The notes under the pieces: model-generated
Told to the model about the DNA's origin: nothing
What the model saw: the letters and a program-made list of their open reading frames with translations, nothing else
Database searches by the model: none
Made by a program: the position numbers and the translations under genes
Shown here: positions 1-18,062 of the stretch, piece after piece
How positions within the stretch are numbered: the first letter of the stretch is position 1
How the letters are laid out: each line of letters starts with the position of its first letter
Origin: a virus
Taxonomy: Duplodnaviria > Heunggongvirae > Uroviricota > Caudoviricetes
Virus record (IMG/VR): IMGVR_UViG_2711768020_000006
Length of the DNA: 43,597 bases
Strand: one strand, 5' to 3'

Positions 1-100
1 CTGGGGAATATCTCCCCGGCAGCCTTCAGGGAAAAATATCATCAGATGGCTGCTTAAAAAAAGAACAAATGGTAGTGTCCGCTATTGCCAGTACACCTCA
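1..100. repeat. Left copy of a 100-bp perfect inverted repeat shared with 43498-43597; IS66-family 5' region including the first ~10 codons of tnpA
   Basis: Reverse complement of 43498-43597 matches 1-100 base for base; identity breaks at position 101. Confidence 0.9.
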
Positions 101-299
101 GCTATTACCTTCTTCAGAGAGCCCCCAGCTACTTCCTGTGACTCTCGATGCAGCTGCCGAACAGCCAGAATCGCTCGCAGAGGACCCGAAAACCCTCAGT
201 ATCAGCTGTGAGGTAACGTTCCGGCACGGGACGCTCCGCTTCAATGGCAATGTCAGCGAAAAGCTCCTGACTCTGCTGATACAGGAACTGAAGCGATGA
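69..299 (+). CDS. tnpA: IS66-family accessory protein TnpA (orfA)
   Basis: 76-aa ORF whose stop overlaps the tnpB start (ATGA); position and size fit IS66 orf1. Recognised from memory of the family. Confidence 0.6.
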   Translation: MVVSAIASTPQLLPSSESPQLLPVTLDAAAEQPESLAEDPKTLSISCEVTFRHGTLRFNGNVSEKLLTLLIQELKR

Positions 300-619
300 T
301 CCCGTTACCTTCCGGGATCAAAATTTGGCTGGTTGCCGGTATCACCGATATGAGAAATGGCTTCAACGGCCTGGCTGCGAAAGTACAGACGGCGCTGAAA
401 GACGATCCCATGTCCGGCCATGTTTTCATTTTCCGGGGCCGCAGCGGCAGTCAGGTTAAACTGCTGTGGTCCACCAGTGACGGACTGTGCCTCCTGACCA
501 AACGGCTGGAGCGTGGGCGCTTCGCCTGGCCGTCAGCCCGTGATGGCAAAGTGTTCCTTACACAGGCGCAGCTGGCGATGCTGCTGGAAGGTATCGACTG
601 GCGACATATAACCAGGTGA
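296..619 (+). CDS. tnpB: IS66-family TnpB (orfB)
   Basis: 107 aa; N-terminal IWLVAGITDMRNGFNGL and FIFRGRSG..KLLW motifs are typical of IS66 TnpB. The stop codon TGA (617-619) coincides with the proposed prophage left end, so the C-terminus may be altered. Confidence 0.75.
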   Translation: MIPLPSGIKIWLVAGITDMRNGFNGLAAKVQTALKDDPMSGHVFIFRGRSGSQVKLLWSTSDGLCLLTKRLERGRFAWPSARDGKVFLTQAQLAMLLEGIDWRHITR

Positions 620-852: not shown

Positions 853-1398
853 TTAACCCGCTTTTGGTTCTACCGCGTTAGATTTGCGACTTCTCTCAGT
901 TTCTTCCAAAATCTCTCTGACGCGTTCGTCAGACATACCTTCAAGCTGTAATGCAGCTATTCTTTTCCTTCCTTCTAAGCGGATTAGATCTTGATTTTCA
1001 GGCTCTAACAACCGAGCTAAGTACTTGGCTCCATTCAGAACCAAATTTTTCGATAGCTGCTCTAAGTCTTTTTCATCAAGTGCGCTGATAATCGTCATAA
1101 TTATCTTCTTGCTTTCATCTTGATTTTCCTTGATCTCACACCGATTCACTTGTGATGCATCACTGAATCCACATAGCCACTCAACACTTACTCCTTCGAT
1201 AGACGCAATCTGAAGGGCGACACTTAAGGATGGCTCAGTGCCACGAGACAGATAATTGTTTAGTGTTGAAAATGAAAGCCCCCAATCTCTTGCTGCAGCT
1301 CTGACGCTGCGGGAGCCAATCAGCCTTTTCAGACGCTCAGCAATGCTTTCTTTTCTACCACCAGGAAAAGAAAGAGATGTTGTTGTTTGCTTGTTCAT
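853..1398 (-). CDS. Prophage immunity repressor (Mu c analogue) with a Ner/XRE-like HTH
   Basis: Divergent from ner-A-B at the left end, as in Mu; HTH-like segment SVRAAARDWGLSFSTLNNYLSRG; AGGAAG Shine-Dalgarno 9 nt upstream of the ATG. Confidence 0.6.
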   Translation of the reverse strand: MNKQTTTSLSFPGGRKESIAERLKRLIGSRSVRAAARDWGLSFSTLNNYLSRGTEPSLSVALQIASIEGVSVEWLCGFSDASQVNRCEIKENQDESKKIIMTIISALDEKDLEQLSKNLVLNGAKYLARLLEPENQDLIRLEGRKRIAALQLEGMSDERVREILEETERSRKSNAVEPKAG

Positions 1399-1538
1399 TT
1401 TCTTTTCTTCCTATCAATTTGAAATTATTAACTTTTAGTGTTGTCAGCAACCATTGATCCACAATAGACAAAAGAAAGATGTTTTTTTTGCTTTACATGA
1501 AGCAGAAGTGGATCAATACTTATATCAAACTTGATAAC

Positions 1539-1562
1539 TAAGTTTAGTTATCAAATTTCGTA
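1539..1562. promoter_or_regulatory. Candidate operator: perfect 10-bp inverted repeat TTGATAACTA-agtt-TAGTTATCAA between the repressor and ner
   Basis: Dyad seen directly in the divergent c/ner intergenic region. Confidence 0.5.
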
Positions 1563-1583
1563 ACTTTTTAGGATAGATGAATC

Positions 1584-1814
1584 ATGGCGAGAAATGAAGT
1601 TAAGCCTGATTGGCATCCTCAAAGAATTTTGGGGGAAGTCAGAGCCAGAGAAGGAAGCATGAGGGCGCTGGCCCGTAAAGCTGGCGTGGGTCAGAACAAT
1701 CTGTACAACGCGGTATACCGCCATGTTCCCAAGTATGAGGGGATTATCGCGGAATGCCTGGGGGTGCCGCCCGAGGAGATTTGGCCCAGCCGCTACATTC
1801 GTAAGGTCGCGTAA
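1584..1814 (+). CDS. ner: Ner-like DNA-binding regulator
   Basis: 76 aa; resembles Mu Ner (WHP..., ...LARKAGVGQNNLYNAV..., C-terminal IWPSRY); sits immediately upstream of the transposase. Confidence 0.8.
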   Translation: MARNEVKPDWHPQRILGEVRAREGSMRALARKAGVGQNNLYNAVYRHVPKYEGIIAECLGVPPEEIWPSRYIRKVA

Positions 1815-1816
1815 TT

Positions 1817-3904
1817 ATGTTTGCTTCAGTTAAAGAACTGGTTGGATTACCGGGGATGCCGGGAACGGAGCAAGGCGTTCGCTATTCAATCAGGAAGTAT
1901 GCAACCAGCGAAACCAGCAGACGCCGCAAGAAAGGCGCTAAAGGTTTTGAATACAGCATTGACTGTTTACCTGAAGTGACACAGCAGGCATTACGCGAAC
2001 GTTATGCCCTGCAACTGATGACGCAAAAAGCCGATGAATCACCGGCTCCGGTGGTGACAAAGGCCAGACGCTCGTCTGCCGTGGTTGATGCGGTGGAGGC
2101 ATATCGCGGATCACCACAACTGATGGTCGAACGCCTCAATGCCCTGACTGAAAACCAGCGCCAGGTGGCAGACGCACGCATTGCGATCGTCAGTGAGGTG
2201 CTGAAATTCACGCAACAACCCGGTTTCAGCTGCGCTAAAGCTATCCGGTTCCTCGTTAACAGCCTGGCACGATCACAACTGGACGAGCGCATTGTGGCAA
2301 TGGTTGAGACGGCGAACGCCAAAAAGGGAAACAGCCGCGCGTTGAGTGAAATCACGCTGAAACGCTGGATTGCGGCCTTTAACAAGGCACAGAACGCCGC
2401 TGAACGCCTGCTTTTACTGGCACCGGGTAAACGCCAGGAAATAAAAGCCGAAGATATTAACTGGCTGCCCGAATTTCTGGCGCAGTATCGCCAGTCAAAC
2501 GGCCGACCAATGACCGAGGCTTACGAGGATTTTGTTGCTGAATGGCAGCACCGGCACGCTGATGAGCCTTATATGCTCGATATCATGCCCTCTTATGACA
2601 CCATTCGCCGCGCAATGAAGAAACTGCCGGAAGTGGTGAAACAAAAAGGCCGGGTAACTGGCAGTGAATACCGTCAGCTTGAGGGATTCACGCGCCGCGA
2701 CTGGTCCAGAATGCCGGTGAATTATGTCTGGATTGGTGACGGTCACGGCATGAAGCTGAAATGCGCGCACCCGGTTCACGGGCGGCCATTCGCACCGGAA
2801 GTGACCTTTGTTATCGACGGTGGCACGCGCTTTGTGGTGGGCTGGAGCCTTGACCTGGCTGAAAATGTTTTCGCCGTAGCCGGTGCCATACAGCACGGTA
2901 TTCGCCATCATGGCAAACCGTTTCTGTATTACTCGGATAATGGCTCCGGGGAAACCGCCGACGTCCTGGATAAGGAGATTGTGGGGATACTGCCACGACT
3001 GGGGATTAATCACCCGACAGGGATTGCCGGTAATCCGCAGGGACGGGGCATTATCGAACGGCTTAACCGCACATTACCGATGCGCATAGCCCGTAAATAC
3101 CGCACCTATTTCGGGAAAGGAGCAGATCGCGAGACGTTACGTAAAACCAACCGCGATTTACGCTCGGCATTCAGTGCCCTGCAACAGGGCAAACGGCTGA
3201 ACGCCCGGCAGCAGTCAGCGATGCGTGATTTACCGTCCTGGTCTGAACTGATTGATGCCATTCGTGACGGTGTTGAGTGGTACAACAACCGGCCGCACGA
3301 TGAATTACCCATGAAGCCGAACGGTAAACATTACAGCCCGGCGGAGTTCAGAAAAAAACGCCTGGCGGAAGAGGACACGGAAATTGAATGGCTGTCCGAT
3401 GTTGAACTGCGGGATATGTTCCGGCCGATGGTGGAGCGCCCTGTAAGACGCTGTGAAATACGCTGGCTGAATAATATTTACTACGCGCCCGAGCTGCGTG
3501 ACGAGCATGGCCGTAAGGTACTTATCAGCTATGACATTCATGATGCCGAACGAATTACCGTGCGCCGCCCGGATGGCAGCGTGATTTGCGAGGCGGTATG
3601 GGACGGCAATAAACGCGAAGCCTTCCCTGTCAGCGCGGAATACTACAAACAGCAGCAGCGCCTTAAAGGCATGCGTAAACGCGCAGAGGAAAAAATCCGT
3701 GATGCCGAGGATGAGGTTGTCAACGTGCTGGAGCACAAGCCGCAGGAGCCCTGGCTGGAAAACATATACCGCCCTGTGGGTAATACGGTGACCGTTCAGC
3801 AACCGGTCGCTGACGATGAACCTGATGAAGAATACGAGCGTAATTTCCAGCGGGGATTGCAACTGCTCGAAGCGAAATTAAAAGAAAGTGATCCGCTGGC
3901 CTGA
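1817..3904 (+). CDS. A: Mu-type DDE transposase A
   Basis: 695 aa; N-terminal GLPGMPGTEQGVRY enhancer-binding-type motif; candidate DDE residues in VWIGDGHG, YYSDNGSGE and GIIERLN; position after ner. Confidence 0.9.
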   Translation: MFASVKELVGLPGMPGTEQGVRYSIRKYATSETSRRRKKGAKGFEYSIDCLPEVTQQALRERYALQLMTQKADESPAPVVTKARRSSAVVDAVEAYRGSPQLMVERLNALTENQRQVADARIAIVSEVLKFTQQPGFSCAKAIRFLVNSLARSQLDERIVAMVETANAKKGNSRALSEITLKRWIAAFNKAQNAAERLLLLAPGKRQEIKAEDINWLPEFLAQYRQSNGRPMTEAYEDFVAEWQHRHADEPYMLDIMPSYDTIRRAMKKLPEVVKQKGRVTGSEYRQLEGFTRRDWSRMPVNYVWIGDGHGMKLKCAHPVHGRPFAPEVTFVIDGGTRFVVGWSLDLAENVFAVAGAIQHGIRHHGKPFLYYSDNGSGETADVLDKEIVGILPRLGINHPTGIAGNPQGRGIIERLNRTLPMRIARKYRTYFGKGADRETLRKTNRDLRSAFSALQQGKRLNARQQSAMRDLPSWSELIDAIRDGVEWYNNRPHDELPMKPNGKHYSPAEFRKKRLAEEDTEIEWLSDVELRDMFRPMVERPVRRCEIRWLNNIYYAPELRDEHGRKVLISYDIHDAERITVRRPDGSVICEAVWDGNKREAFPVSAEYYKQQQRLKGMRKRAEEKIRDAEDEVVNVLEHKPQEPWLENIYRPVGNTVTVQQPVADDEPDEEYERNFQRGLQLLEAKLKESDPLA

Positions 3905-3977: not shown

Positions 3978-4919
3978 GTGAATAATATGACCGATATTAA
4001 CGATGTAATCAAGACCATTGATGAACTTATTGATGGCGGCGTACTGACGCAGTATGCCATCGCCAGAGAGGCGGGAATTTCCGACGGCACATTATCGGCT
4101 TTCCGTAAGGGAAAATATAAAGGCGATAACGCTGCTGTGGCTGCTTCCCTGCGCTCCTGGTATGAGAACTGGAATAAACAAAGCGCACTGCCGGAACCGC
4201 CGCAGTTTGTGGAAACTCAGACAGTCCAGGAGCTGCGCGCACTGTTTCAGGCGGTTCGCCTGATGGGCTGTATTAACGTTATTGTGGGCGTACCGGGTGT
4301 GGGTAAAACGGCCACTGCCCGTAATTACTGCCAGGAGCAACCAAACACCTGGATGATCACCCTGTCACCCGCGCACTCCAGCGTCACGGAGTGTCTGCTG
4401 GAGCTGGCCGATGCGCTGGGGATTGATTACACCCGCGCGAACAAAGGGGCATTATCCCGCGCCATCCGCCGTCGCCTGATGGGAACGCGTGGACTGGTGA
4501 TTGTGGATGAGGCGGATCATCTTGGTATTGACGGTCTGGAGCAACTCCGGGCAATTCAGGACGCCACGGGGATCGGGATGGTGCTTATTGGTAACCCGCG
4601 CGGATTGTTTAAAGGTGGACGCCGCGCCTTTGATGATTTATCGCGCCTGTTCAGCCGTCTTGCCCGTACAAAACAACTTCGCAAGGCCAAAAAGGCGGAT
4701 GTGCTGGCCATTGCCATGGCGTGGGGGATCAGTGGTGAGGCCGAGCTGGCCGTCATGCAGGCTATCGCTGAAAAGCCGGGAGCGTTACGCGTTCTGACAC
4801 ATACGCTTAACCAGGCGTGGCTCACCGCCAGCGGTGAAGGCGCGGCGCTGACAGAAAAACATATTAATGCGGCCTTTAAAGAGGTTTATACCAACCCTGA
4901 ATTACTCTCACAGGTGTGA
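3978..4919 (+). CDS. B: Mu B-type transposition ATPase (AAA+ target DNA activator)
   Basis: 313 aa; Walker A GVPGVGKT and Walker B LVIVDEADHL; N-terminal HTH; follows A. Confidence 0.9.
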   Translation: MNNMTDINDVIKTIDELIDGGVLTQYAIAREAGISDGTLSAFRKGKYKGDNAAVAASLRSWYENWNKQSALPEPPQFVETQTVQELRALFQAVRLMGCINVIVGVPGVGKTATARNYCQEQPNTWMITLSPAHSSVTECLLELADALGIDYTRANKGALSRAIRRRLMGTRGLVIVDEADHLGIDGLEQLRAIQDATGIGMVLIGNPRGLFKGGRRAFDDLSRLFSRLARTKQLRKAKKADVLAIAMAWGISGEAELAVMQAIAEKPGALRVLTHTLNQAWLTASGEGAALTEKHINAAFKEVYTNPELLSQV

Positions 4920-16747: not shown

Positions 16748-18062
16748 TTTAGGTTATGCCGCCACGCTTCCCTCAAAAGAGACGGTGGCATACTTCCGCG
16801 CCAAAGGGGCGCATATCAGCTGGAACTGGTTCGAAACAGACGCGGATGTTCATGCCCGCTCATTCACGGCAGCAAAAACGGCACGGCTGGATGTGGTAAC
16901 CACATTACAGGCCGAAGTGCAGCGGGCCATTGATGAGGGGATTTCACAGAAAGAATTTATCCGCACACTGACGCCACGCCTGCAAAAGCTGGGATGGTGG
17001 GGAAAGCAGATTGTGGTGGACAGCGACGGTAACGCGGAAGAAGTGCAGCAGGGCAGTCCCCGTCGTCTGGCGCTGATTTACAACGTGAACACCCGTGTGG
17101 CTTACAATGCCGGGCGTTACACGCAGATGATGAACAACACGGACACGCATCCGTTCTGGCAGTATGTGGCGGTCATGGACAGCCGTACCCGCCCGTCGCA
17201 TTCCGCCCTTAACGGTCTGGTATTCCGCTATGACGATCCGTTCTGGAAAACACACTACCCGCCCAATGGCTGGAACTGCCGCTGCCGTGTGCGGCCATTG
17301 TCTCAGGCCCGTCTGGATGCAATGGGGTTATCCGTTTCATCCGGTGAGGATCATCTCTCCACCCGCAATGTTGAGGCTGGCGTGGATAAACAGACCGGAG
17401 AAGTCAGAGAAATGCCGGTGACCACATATTCAGATGGCGCCAGAACCATGACACCGGATGTGGGCTGGTCATATAACCCCGGCTCGGCAGCGTTCGGCAC
17501 AGACCAGGCGCTGATCCGCAAACTGATCGAGGTGAAAAGCCCGGCGTTACGGGAAATGGTGGTTCAGGAGATGAACAACAGCCCGGAGCGGCAGCTGGCG
17601 TTCCGCATCTGGGCAAAAAACATCATGCAGACCCGGCGAGGTGGTAACGATATCCGCACGCTGGGCTTTATGACTGAAAGCATTGCGCAGGCAGTGGAAA
17701 GCCGGACGGGAACGCCACCGGCCCGCCTGCTGGCGATGAGCGGTAAAAATGTGCTCCATGCGGACAGTGTGAAACATCAGAATGACGGCATCGCTCTGAC
17801 GCCGGAGGACTTCGGGCGCTTACCGGCAATGCTGGCAAGGCCAAAAGCGGTACTGTGGGACAAACGGCACAACAATCTGATGTATATCGTGGAAAATCAG
17901 GATGGCAGTGTGCAGATTGCCGTTAATGCACCGTACAGTCTGAAACGTCAGCCCGACAAACTGGATGTGATTGTGAATGCTTACCGGGTTATCAATATGG
18001 ATAAGCTGAAATCGGATATCCGGGGCGGAATGCTTGAGGTGCTGGAAGGACAAATTGATTAA
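16731..18062 (+). CDS. MuF-like head morphogenesis protein (Mu gp30/F)
   Basis: Conserved MuF motif region VMDSRTRPSHSALNGLVF...NGWNCRCRV. Confidence 0.8.
   Translation: MAQGIDLGYAATLPSKETVAYFRAKGAHISWNWFETDADVHARSFTAAKTARLDVVTTLQAEVQRAIDEGISQKEFIRTLTPRLQKLGWWGKQIVVDSDGNAEEVQQGSPRRLALIYNVNTRVAYNAGRYTQMMNNTDTHPFWQYVAVMDSRTRPSHSALNGLVFRYDDPFWKTHYPPNGWNCRCRVRPLSQARLDAMGLSVSSGEDHLSTRNVEAGVDKQTGEVREMPVTTYSDGARTMTPDVGWSYNPGSAAFGTDQALIRKLIEVKSPALREMVVQEMNNSPERQLAFRIWAKNIMQTRRGGNDIRTLGFMTESIAQAVESRTGTPPARLLAMSGKNVLHADSVKHQNDGIALTPEDFGRLPAMLARPKAVLWDKRHNNLMYIVENQDGSVQIAVNAPYSLKRQPDKLDVIVNAYRVINMDKLKSDIRGGMLEVLEGQID

Follow-up and report, generated by a model that had tools for sequence, protein, structure and literature searches.

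The conserved dyad in the c/ner control region of a Mu-like prophage is probably a Ner operator

Which molecule reads the dyad that lies between the leftward repressor gene and ner in a Mu-like transposable prophage? The first-pass annotation of this locus had remarked that the dyad half-site is close to the core of the prophage end repeats, and had proposed on the model of Mu that one sequence may serve both immunity and transposition. The question was examined in the whole stretch of DNA that was analysed (43,597 nt; the window) and in related prophages. Sequence comparisons suggest that the dyad at 1527–1558 is probably the operator of the phage's Ner, a Cro-like regulator, and is of the Mu/D108 type; it would most likely be an ordinary phage switch element, in an immunity type that is new within a known phage family.

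The prophage was delimited from both ends. The sequence from its start (TATAACCAGG) onward is common to 8 independent insertions, the flanks of which are all different, and the right terminus (...GCGCTATA) is followed by GACA. GACA is duplicated on the two sides of the prophage (603–606 and 39240–39243), and the match to IS66 tnpB stops at 606. Gene order at the left end is three end repeats, repressor, 185-bp control region, ner, A and B, and the features are as follows.

607 to 39239, plus strand: Mu-like transposable prophage, 38.6 kb; the host site is an IS66-family element
623 to 633 (L1), 718 to 728 (L2) and 770 to 780 (L3), plus strand: transposase-binding repeats of the left end, consensus ATTTGATACYG
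853 to 1398, minus strand: repressor gene, c analogue, 181 aa, with an N-terminal XRE-type helix-turn-helix
1399 to 1583: c/ner control region, 185 bp, the whole gap between the leftward repressor gene and ner
1584 to 1814, plus strand: ner, 76 aa, Ner/HTH_35 family (Pfam HTH_35, E = 1e-21)
1817 to 3904, plus strand: transposase A, 695 aa, with Pfam HTH_Tnp_Mu_1 and Mu-transpos_C
3978 to 4919: gene B, next after A in the left-end order
39156 to 39166 (R3), 39191 to 39201 (R2) and 39213 to 39223 (R1), minus strand: right-end repeats

The motif TTGATAC(C/T) occurs three times per prophage end (625, 720 and 772 on the plus strand; 39221, 39199 and 39164 on the minus strand), with the outermost repeat 18 nt from the terminus at both ends. 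Most relatives examined have the same three left-end sites, always TTGATAC, in any immunity type. Of 5,426 complete E. coli genomes, 233 contain related prophages, and 22 of these have the window's ner and A N-terminus. Many carriers of the prophage lineage are Shiga-toxin strains.

The repressor matched the Pfam families HTH_3 and Phage_CI_repr, both weakly, and its RefSeq relatives are labelled as XRE family regulators. Residues 100–168 are 38% identical to the type-B repressor of L024, a repressor with a MuA-like N-terminus. Structure matches for the window Ner were Mu Ner (PDB 1NEQ, E = 3.7e-13) and EnrR (7F9H, E = 2.9e-11), and sequence identity was 43% to Mu Ner and 41% to D108 Ner. The GMPG...GV motif that had been noticed at the N-terminus of A is present there (VGLPGMPGTEQGV; Pfam HTH_Tnp_Mu_1, E = 1.3e-8), in a MuA I-alpha-like winged-helix domain that is encoded by approximately 1817–2041 and aligns with the N-termini of MuA and D108 A. 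BLASTP between the N-termini of the window repressor and the window A returned no alignment; the positive control, the corresponding c and A pair of L024, gave E = 5e-15. The boundary between immunity types falls in A codons 39–58, similarly to that between Mu and D108. Covariation of the transposase N-terminus with the immunity module is retained.

By repeat search the dyad was called as arms 1527–1541 and 1544–1558, 15 nt each and 93% complementary. It is better read as 12-nt arms (AAAYTTGATAAC) around an 8-nt spacer, and its surroundings are as follows.

1492 to 1520, plus strand: predicted early promoter Pe, with -35 TTTACA (1492–1497), a 17-nt spacer and -10 AATACT (1515–1520)
1527 to 1558, no strand: dyad, read as the Ner operator, composed of AAACTTGATAAC (1527–1538), spacer TAAGTTTA (1539–1546) and GTTATCAAATTT (1547–1558)
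1557 to 1564, plus strand: extra degenerate half-site TTCGTAAC, part of direct repeat D3 (TATCAAACTTGATAACT / TATCAAATTTCGTAACT, 26 nt apart)

Dinucleotide shuffling of the region produced a perfect inverted repeat of at least 11 nt with a gap of at most 10 nt in 8 of 3000 trials (P = 0.003). The half-site TTGATAAC is found at 1531 (plus strand) and 1547 (minus strand), with one further copy in the 43.6-kb window, at 17988. Together with the two arms, TTCGTAAC and a copy of TATATCAA at 1520–1527 (minus strand) give four alternating half-sites, and among relatives 1557–1564 is invariant and 1520–1527 variable. Pe is the sole sigma-70-like match within 1300–1700 by consensus prediction, and its hexamers are identical in sequence and place in W- and K-type relatives. 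The dyad is set off by 6 nt from the predicted -10 on its left and by 25 nt from ner on its right. On the minus strand to the right of the dyad, where Mu has a leftward repressor promoter, inspection by eye gave only the weak match TTCATT-17-TATCCT, which is not taken to be one; conservation of its -10 is uninformative, since TATCCT is the reverse of the ner Shine-Dalgarno sequence.

Among window-type relatives, ner has 9–13 synonymous third-position differences per 77. Over the 57 noncoding nucleotides of 1527–1583, variation was confined to three spacer positions (1539, 1542 and 1546) and to 1530 in L009, where C>T makes the arms perfectly symmetric and is the sole arm change among relatives. 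The probability that at least three of four variable sites fall within the 8-nt spacer is 0.007, and the probability that the other 49 nt stay unchanged at the third-position rate is approximately 0.001. Judged from this variation, the arms are under purifying selection, and the pattern is characteristic of protein binding to two specific arms across a spacer whose sequence is not fixed. The dyad that had been described in the control region is present there, conserved and operator-like.

Operators can be assigned to their proteins without experiments by means of natural recombinants between immunity modules, and such recombinants were used here to find which protein the dyad follows. The E. 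coli loci L003–L006 have an identical Ner (WP_001575658.1) and repressors of 100% down to 41% identity; all retain the whole sequence rightward from the dyad, and in L004 and L005 the leftward DNA is unalignable. The dyad is kept beside this identical Ner with three repressor types, some 41–43% identical. Reverse recombinants were obtained from a homologue search with the repressor plus a look-up of gene contexts. In L188, L190, L193 and L195 the repressors are 64–69% identical with the recognition helix GLSFSTLNNYL unchanged, and the Pe hexamers and the GTGGATCA / TGATCCAC motifs are retained; Ner is of another type (53–55% identical), and TTATCYG repeats replace the dyad. The K-type element and K-type Ner are found with a third repressor type in L191 and L197. 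The transposase recognition helix GMPGT(E/A)QGVRY(S/A)I(R/K)K is common to loci of both kinds, those with the window-type dyad and those with the K-type element, and L190 has a different A helix (GLPGTVQGIRAALNKW) beside a K-type element. Across these loci the dyad is seen to track Ner type, and neither repressor type nor transposase N-terminal type, so that it would be neither the operator of the immunity repressor nor a site specified by the transposase N-domain.

The repressors of L004 and L005 keep STLNNY and may share the specificity of the window's, so the argument about the repressor rests on L188, L190, L193 and L195. In all loci found, window-type Ner was paired with the window-type A N-terminus; what distinguishes Ner from the A N-domain is therefore indirect, coming from the K-type loci, where the N-domain is 68–75% identical and not the same. 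A scan with the dyad pattern TTGATAAC-N8-GTTATCAA returned 40 stretches in viral contigs and at least 120 in metagenomes; among the matches listed, six were Mu-like loci (tblastn), all with window-type Ner and A N-terminus, the rest were chance matches, and there was no recombinant splitting Ner from the A N-terminus. Intermediate Ner relatives were sought in viral and genome collections, which yielded only identical copies or proteins of 45% identity or less, and a homologous-protein search with Ner gave 2 matches, both all but identical to the window Ner and one of them a fragment; without such intermediates, there is no graded covariation series for the window Ner. Covariation between types was seen in the K- and S-type Ner proteins, which share the helix-3 sequence RDSLK and both accompany (T/A)TATCCG repeats that recur every 13 bp; in the window Ner the helix-3 place is taken by GQNNLYNAVY, and its sites are TTGATAAC. 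This pairing of Ner helix with repeat is supporting evidence for reading the dyad as a Ner site. Next to ner, the S, K and H types have elements of another build, longer and with direct repeats, so a rule of one dyad per Ner does not appear uniform across types.

Reading the dyad as an O3-like operator of the immunity repressor, with an XRE-type dimer on the palindrome, is very unlikely. XRE repressors do bind palindromes, and L004 and L005 keep the dyad with repressors that share STLNNY with the window's, but the identical recognition helix is found in L188, L190, L193 and L195, the control regions of which are without the dyad. A half-site spacing of 10 bp is usual for XRE-type dimers. In the dyad, the centres of the conserved TTGATAAC cores lie 16 bp from each other. 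A better candidate, the 18-bp TGATCCAC-AA-GTGGATCA in the Pe spacer, has the 10-bp half-site spacing and tracks repressor type. An RNA hairpin, formed by the 5' leader when the early operon is transcribed and acting in stability or attenuation, is highly improbable as the reason for the palindrome. The leader does fold to a 10-bp hairpin (minimum free energy -12.6 kcal/mol, against -8.25 ± 2.4 in shuffles), and some dyad is found at the corresponding place in every immunity type. Against this, the z-score is just -1.8; in L004, L005 and L012 the predicted 1539–1546 pair is lost, uncompensated, through 1539 T>A; the K- and S-type elements are mostly direct rather than inverted repeats; and the element swaps as a block with Ner type.

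The immunity repressor most likely binds elsewhere, at GTGGATCA/TGATCCAC half-sites within and upstream of Pe, for which the candidate operators in the window are as follows.

1455 to 1472, no strand: candidate distal repressor operator, TGATCCAC-AA-TAGACAAA; the left half is consensus and the right half degenerate
1498 to 1515, no strand: candidate repressor operator in the Pe spacer, TGAAGCAG-AA-GTGGATCA

Each of these sites has one good half in the window, and the Pe-spacer site forms a 10-nt inverted repeat (I11) with 1453–1462. The right half GTGGATCA is invariant across relatives with the GLSFSTLNNYL repressor helix, and in L190 a perfect 18-bp palindrome, TGATCCAC-AA-GTGGATCA, lies between -35 and -10. 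At the distal place (T)GATCCACAA is kept together with this helix beside either Ner type (L003, L188 and L195); it is more degenerate in L193 and L190, and other repressor types are without it. From this co-occurrence we infer the assignment of both sites to the repressor.

The resemblance to the end repeats was evaluated against chance. The half-site TTGATAAC is identical to the end core TTGATACC at 7 of 8 positions, and to that extent the first-pass annotation was correct. When the 185-bp AT-rich region was shuffled, 12% of the shuffles contained at least one match with at most one mismatch to TTGATACC, and the two observed matches count as one event because both arms belong to one palindrome. 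Measured against the longer consensus ATTTGATACCG, the closer of the two arms differs at 2 positions, as do 15 other non-end places in the window, where chance expectation at the 2-mismatch level is 10.4 ± 2.9 over the whole window. The two classes of site are also fixed differently at position 7, which is C in 43 of 43 end sites (6 in the window, and 37 at the left ends of 13 relatives; five Ner types are represented) and A throughout the dyad arms of all relatives (TTGATAA). In S, B and H types the A core is 96–98% identical and the end sites are the same, and the ner-proximal elements are unrelated and contain no TTGATAAC dyad; the end-binding part of the transposase therefore does not need this dyad. 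The likeness of the dyad to the end repeats looks like chance in these comparisons.

That the transposase, through its I-alpha-like or its end-binding domain, also binds the dyad as a transpositional enhancer is the form in which immunity and transposition might share one sequence, and it is very unlikely. In its favour are the HTH_Tnp_Mu_1 domain of A, the immunity heterology that extends into A codons 39–58 and suggests that the A N-domain reads the control region, the L005 control region, which is conserved almost only from the dyad to ner with the same A N-domain, and an excess of TTGATAC-like 7-mers in 1399–1583 (6 observed, 0.85 expected). These points are countered by the K-type loci, where the A helix is almost unchanged and the TTGATAAC dyad is absent, by the different A helix of L190 beside the same K-type element, by the S, B and H relatives and position 7 as described above, and by the unrelatedness of the repressor and the A N-domain here. 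The Mu enhancer is moreover of different build, consisting of two A-site clusters around an IHF site within O1–O3, and MuA uses one region for the ends and another for the enhancer (PMC3145075). Even in Mu, an end-site look of the enhancer would not be expected. The Mu operator can act as enhancer too because c and MuA have a DNA-binding domain in common (PMC3145075); here the Mu basis for a shared operator and enhancer is missing, because the repressor is of XRE type and without similarity to the A N-terminus. The proposal that one sequence serves both immunity and transposition is not borne out for the dyad, which follows Ner type.

The preferred reading, a Ner operator, would work as follows. 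Ner molecules would fill both 12-bp arms AAAYTTGATAAC, with the 8-bp AT-rich spacer of variable sequence between them, and the degenerate flanking half-sites may be occupied by Ner too. Since the site would span approximately +1 to +32 of the predicted Pe, bound Ner would lower ner-A-B transcription and, if Mu is a guide, may lower leftward transcription of the repressor as well. The Ner proteins of Mu and D108 are monomers in solution. EnrR, of the Ner family, is also a monomer, and its crystal contains two cross-contacting copies on an AT-rich palindrome (PMC9023278). As it stands, the assignment gives a function to a conserved palindrome of a Mu-like prophage lineage and matters little beyond that.

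The location of the enhancer in Mu-like phages whose repressor and transposase no longer share a DNA-binding domain is the question that this locus raises. With the Mu-type DNA-binding domain of the repressor swapped for an XRE domain, the I-alpha-like domain of A is without a repressor operator to share; it probably still reads something in the immunity module, because the heterology between types runs into codons 39–58. A k-mer search of control regions with a window-like A N-domain gave no enhancer candidate, returning only the purine tract AAAAGAAA/TTTCTTTT. This tract was rejected as an enhancer, being present also in L190 and overlapping the repressor ribosome-binding region. Six TTGAT-cored sites are found in the 185 bp, namely the two Ner-operator arms, two repressor half-sites, and sites at 1411 and 1522. 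It is conceivable, as a long shot, that these are weak transposase sites jointly forming an enhancer, for which Ner and the repressor would compete with the transposase and so gate transposition; if true, an end-like motif, and not a protein domain common to repressor and transposase, would mediate the gating.

Among known systems, the dyad was compared with the Ner sites of D108 and Mu. The D108 Ner operator, reportedly described by Kukolj et al. in 1989, is said to consist of 11-bp perfect inverted repeats with an 8-bp spacer; the Mu Ner site of Tolias and DuBow in 1986 is said to be two 12-bp sites, ANYTARCTAAGT, 6 bp apart. Dyads were read directly in both phage sequences, and we take these to be the experimentally defined Ner operators. 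In D108, CCGTGAGCTAC-N8-GTAGCTCACGG ends 24 nt before ner. In Mu, AGCTAGCTAAGT-N6-ACTTAGTTAAAT starts 7 nt after the -10 read for Mu Pe, whose hexamers (TTTACA-17-TATCTT) lie within the annotated early-promoter span, and it sits between two spans annotated in the Mu GenBank record as part of the Ner binding region. By these sequence-level tests the window dyad appears to belong with the Mu and D108 Ner operators.

The likeness to D108 is one of arrangement: both have two inverted arms of 11–12 bp around an 8-bp AT-rich spacer, the dyad ends 24–25 nt before the ner start codon and downstream of the early promoter (in the window, of the predicted one), and the neighbouring gene encodes a Ner/HTH_35 protein of 41% identity. 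The arms themselves are unrelated (CCGTGAGCTAC in D108, AAAYTTGATAAC in the window), the window has extra degenerate half-sites on both sides, and the repressor is of Mu type in D108 but of XRE type in the window. With Mu the window shares an inverted pair of 12-bp arms, which starts 7 nt after the -10 read in Mu and 6 nt after the one predicted in the window; the predicted Pe hexamers resemble those of Mu, with -35 TTTACA in both. The window spacer, at 8 bp, is longer than that of Mu (6 bp). The centre of the window dyad, TAACTAAGT, also matches the Mu Ner half-site core at 9 of 9 positions, with CTAAGT shared. This match was discarded as accidental, because the centre is not conserved among relatives with identical Ner, which have TAACTAACT or TAACAAAAT there (spacers TAAGTTTA, TAACTTTG and AAAATTTA).

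The Mu operator/enhancer (internal activation sequence, O1–O3) lies in the same c-ner control region, and the window A keeps an I-alpha-like N-terminal domain that co-varies with the immunity module. The differences are that c and MuA share a domain in Mu and the repressor and A of the window are unrelated, and that the window dyad is downstream of the predicted Pe and tracks Ner rather than A; the sister prophage L024 retains the Mu arrangement, with c and A N-termini alike. As with Cro and OR of lambda, a small second repressor is encoded by the first gene of the lytic operon, and a palindrome lies between divergent repressor and lytic genes. Ner is of another fold family (HTH_35), and its site appears to be separate from those of the repressor, unlike the shared sites of lambda.

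Matches within one mismatch of TTGATAC, the core of the prophage-end repeats, were counted in the 185-bp control region between the repressor gene and ner (1399-1583). Six 7-mers were observed against 0.85 expected, a number reached by 0 of 5000 shuffles, and these represent fewer than six independent events because four of them fall in two palindromic pairs. The TTGATAC-like 7-mers were located in the control region at:

1411
1454
1510
1522
1531
1548

Over the whole window, 55 occurrences of TTGATACC (≤1 mismatch) were counted, compared with 27.6 ± 5.7 in shuffled sequence. End sites and arms of the dyad read as the Ner operator (1527-1558) made up only 8 of the 55, and the whole-window excess may be an effect of composition or codon usage.

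Two further repeated elements were recorded around the repressor gene start and the predicted early promoter, Pe (1492-1520):

1455-1472, candidate repressor operator, consensus TGATCCAC-AA-GTGGATCA
1498-1515, candidate repressor operator, same consensus
1346-1355, minus strand, purine motif GAAAAGAAAG
1365-1374, plus strand, purine motif GAAAAGAAAG
1399-1407, minus strand, purine motif GAAAAGAAAG
1469-1478, plus strand, purine motif GAAAAGAAAG

One copy of the candidate repressor operator occupies the spacer of Pe, and in the K-type locus L190 this element is a perfect 18-bp palindrome. The four GAAAAGAAAG copies are arranged as two inverted pairs, located around the repressor gene start and on the upstream side of the Pe -35. 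Two of these copies, which overlap the repressor's conserved K-E-S codons, form a terminator-like hairpin. AAAAGAAA, upstream of Pe, was retained by every relative of the window and K immunity types. Ner-proximal elements of K-type loci (L188, L190, L191, L193, L195 and L197) and of the S-type locus L022 consisted of direct repeats recurring every 13 bp, with three copies of TTATCYG in the former and two of ATATCCG in the latter, accompanied by an outer inverted copy. The helix-3 sequence RDSLK was common to the K-type and S-type Ner proteins.

Repressors in this prophage family share a common C-terminal domain and carry N-terminal DNA-binding domains of two unrelated kinds. An XRE helix-turn-helix N-terminus was found in the repressors of the window (853-1398) and of the S, H and K types. 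The repressor of the related locus L024 (777-1283) has a Mu-c/MuA-like winged helix, which resembles the N-terminus of that locus's own transposase (E = 5e-15). The difference has the appearance of a domain exchange inside a single repressor family.

Prophage termini were read at both ends. The target-site duplication is 4 bp in the window (GACA, 603-606 and 39240-39243), and an independent insertion for which LC727895 carries the annotation likewise has 4 bp (AGAG; L001 1495-1498, L199 181-184); that of Mu is 5 bp. Left termini were compared in the window, L001, L003-L006, L009-L011, L022, L023 and L070, all of them independent insertions: eight, including the window (607-610), have 5'-TATAACC and the remaining four have 5'-TGTAACC. 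The right terminus was ...GCGCTATA-3' in both copies read (window 39236-39239). Read together, these termini indicate that at least some active prophage copies end in 3'-TA, not in CA, the canonical transposon terminus. Both flanks (window 1-606 and 39240-43597) are IS66-family DNA, with tnpA and tnpB on the left, tnpB being interrupted near its 3' end, and a transposase gene on the right; the transposable phage thus sits within an insertion sequence.

The annotated transposase start seems too far downstream in the H-type loci L025 (1783) and L026 (1773). By tblastn, the N-terminus of the window A protein aligned from residue 1, ~48 nt upstream of the annotated start (L025 1735, L026 1725).

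In ~210 E. coli genomes, the match to the window A gene started only at codons 39-58 (window 1933-1990), and the repressor gene, ner and the A N-terminus are therefore an immunity module swapped as one unit. The immunity module of Mu and D108 is likewise exchanged as a unit; the window repressor, however, is not Mu-like.
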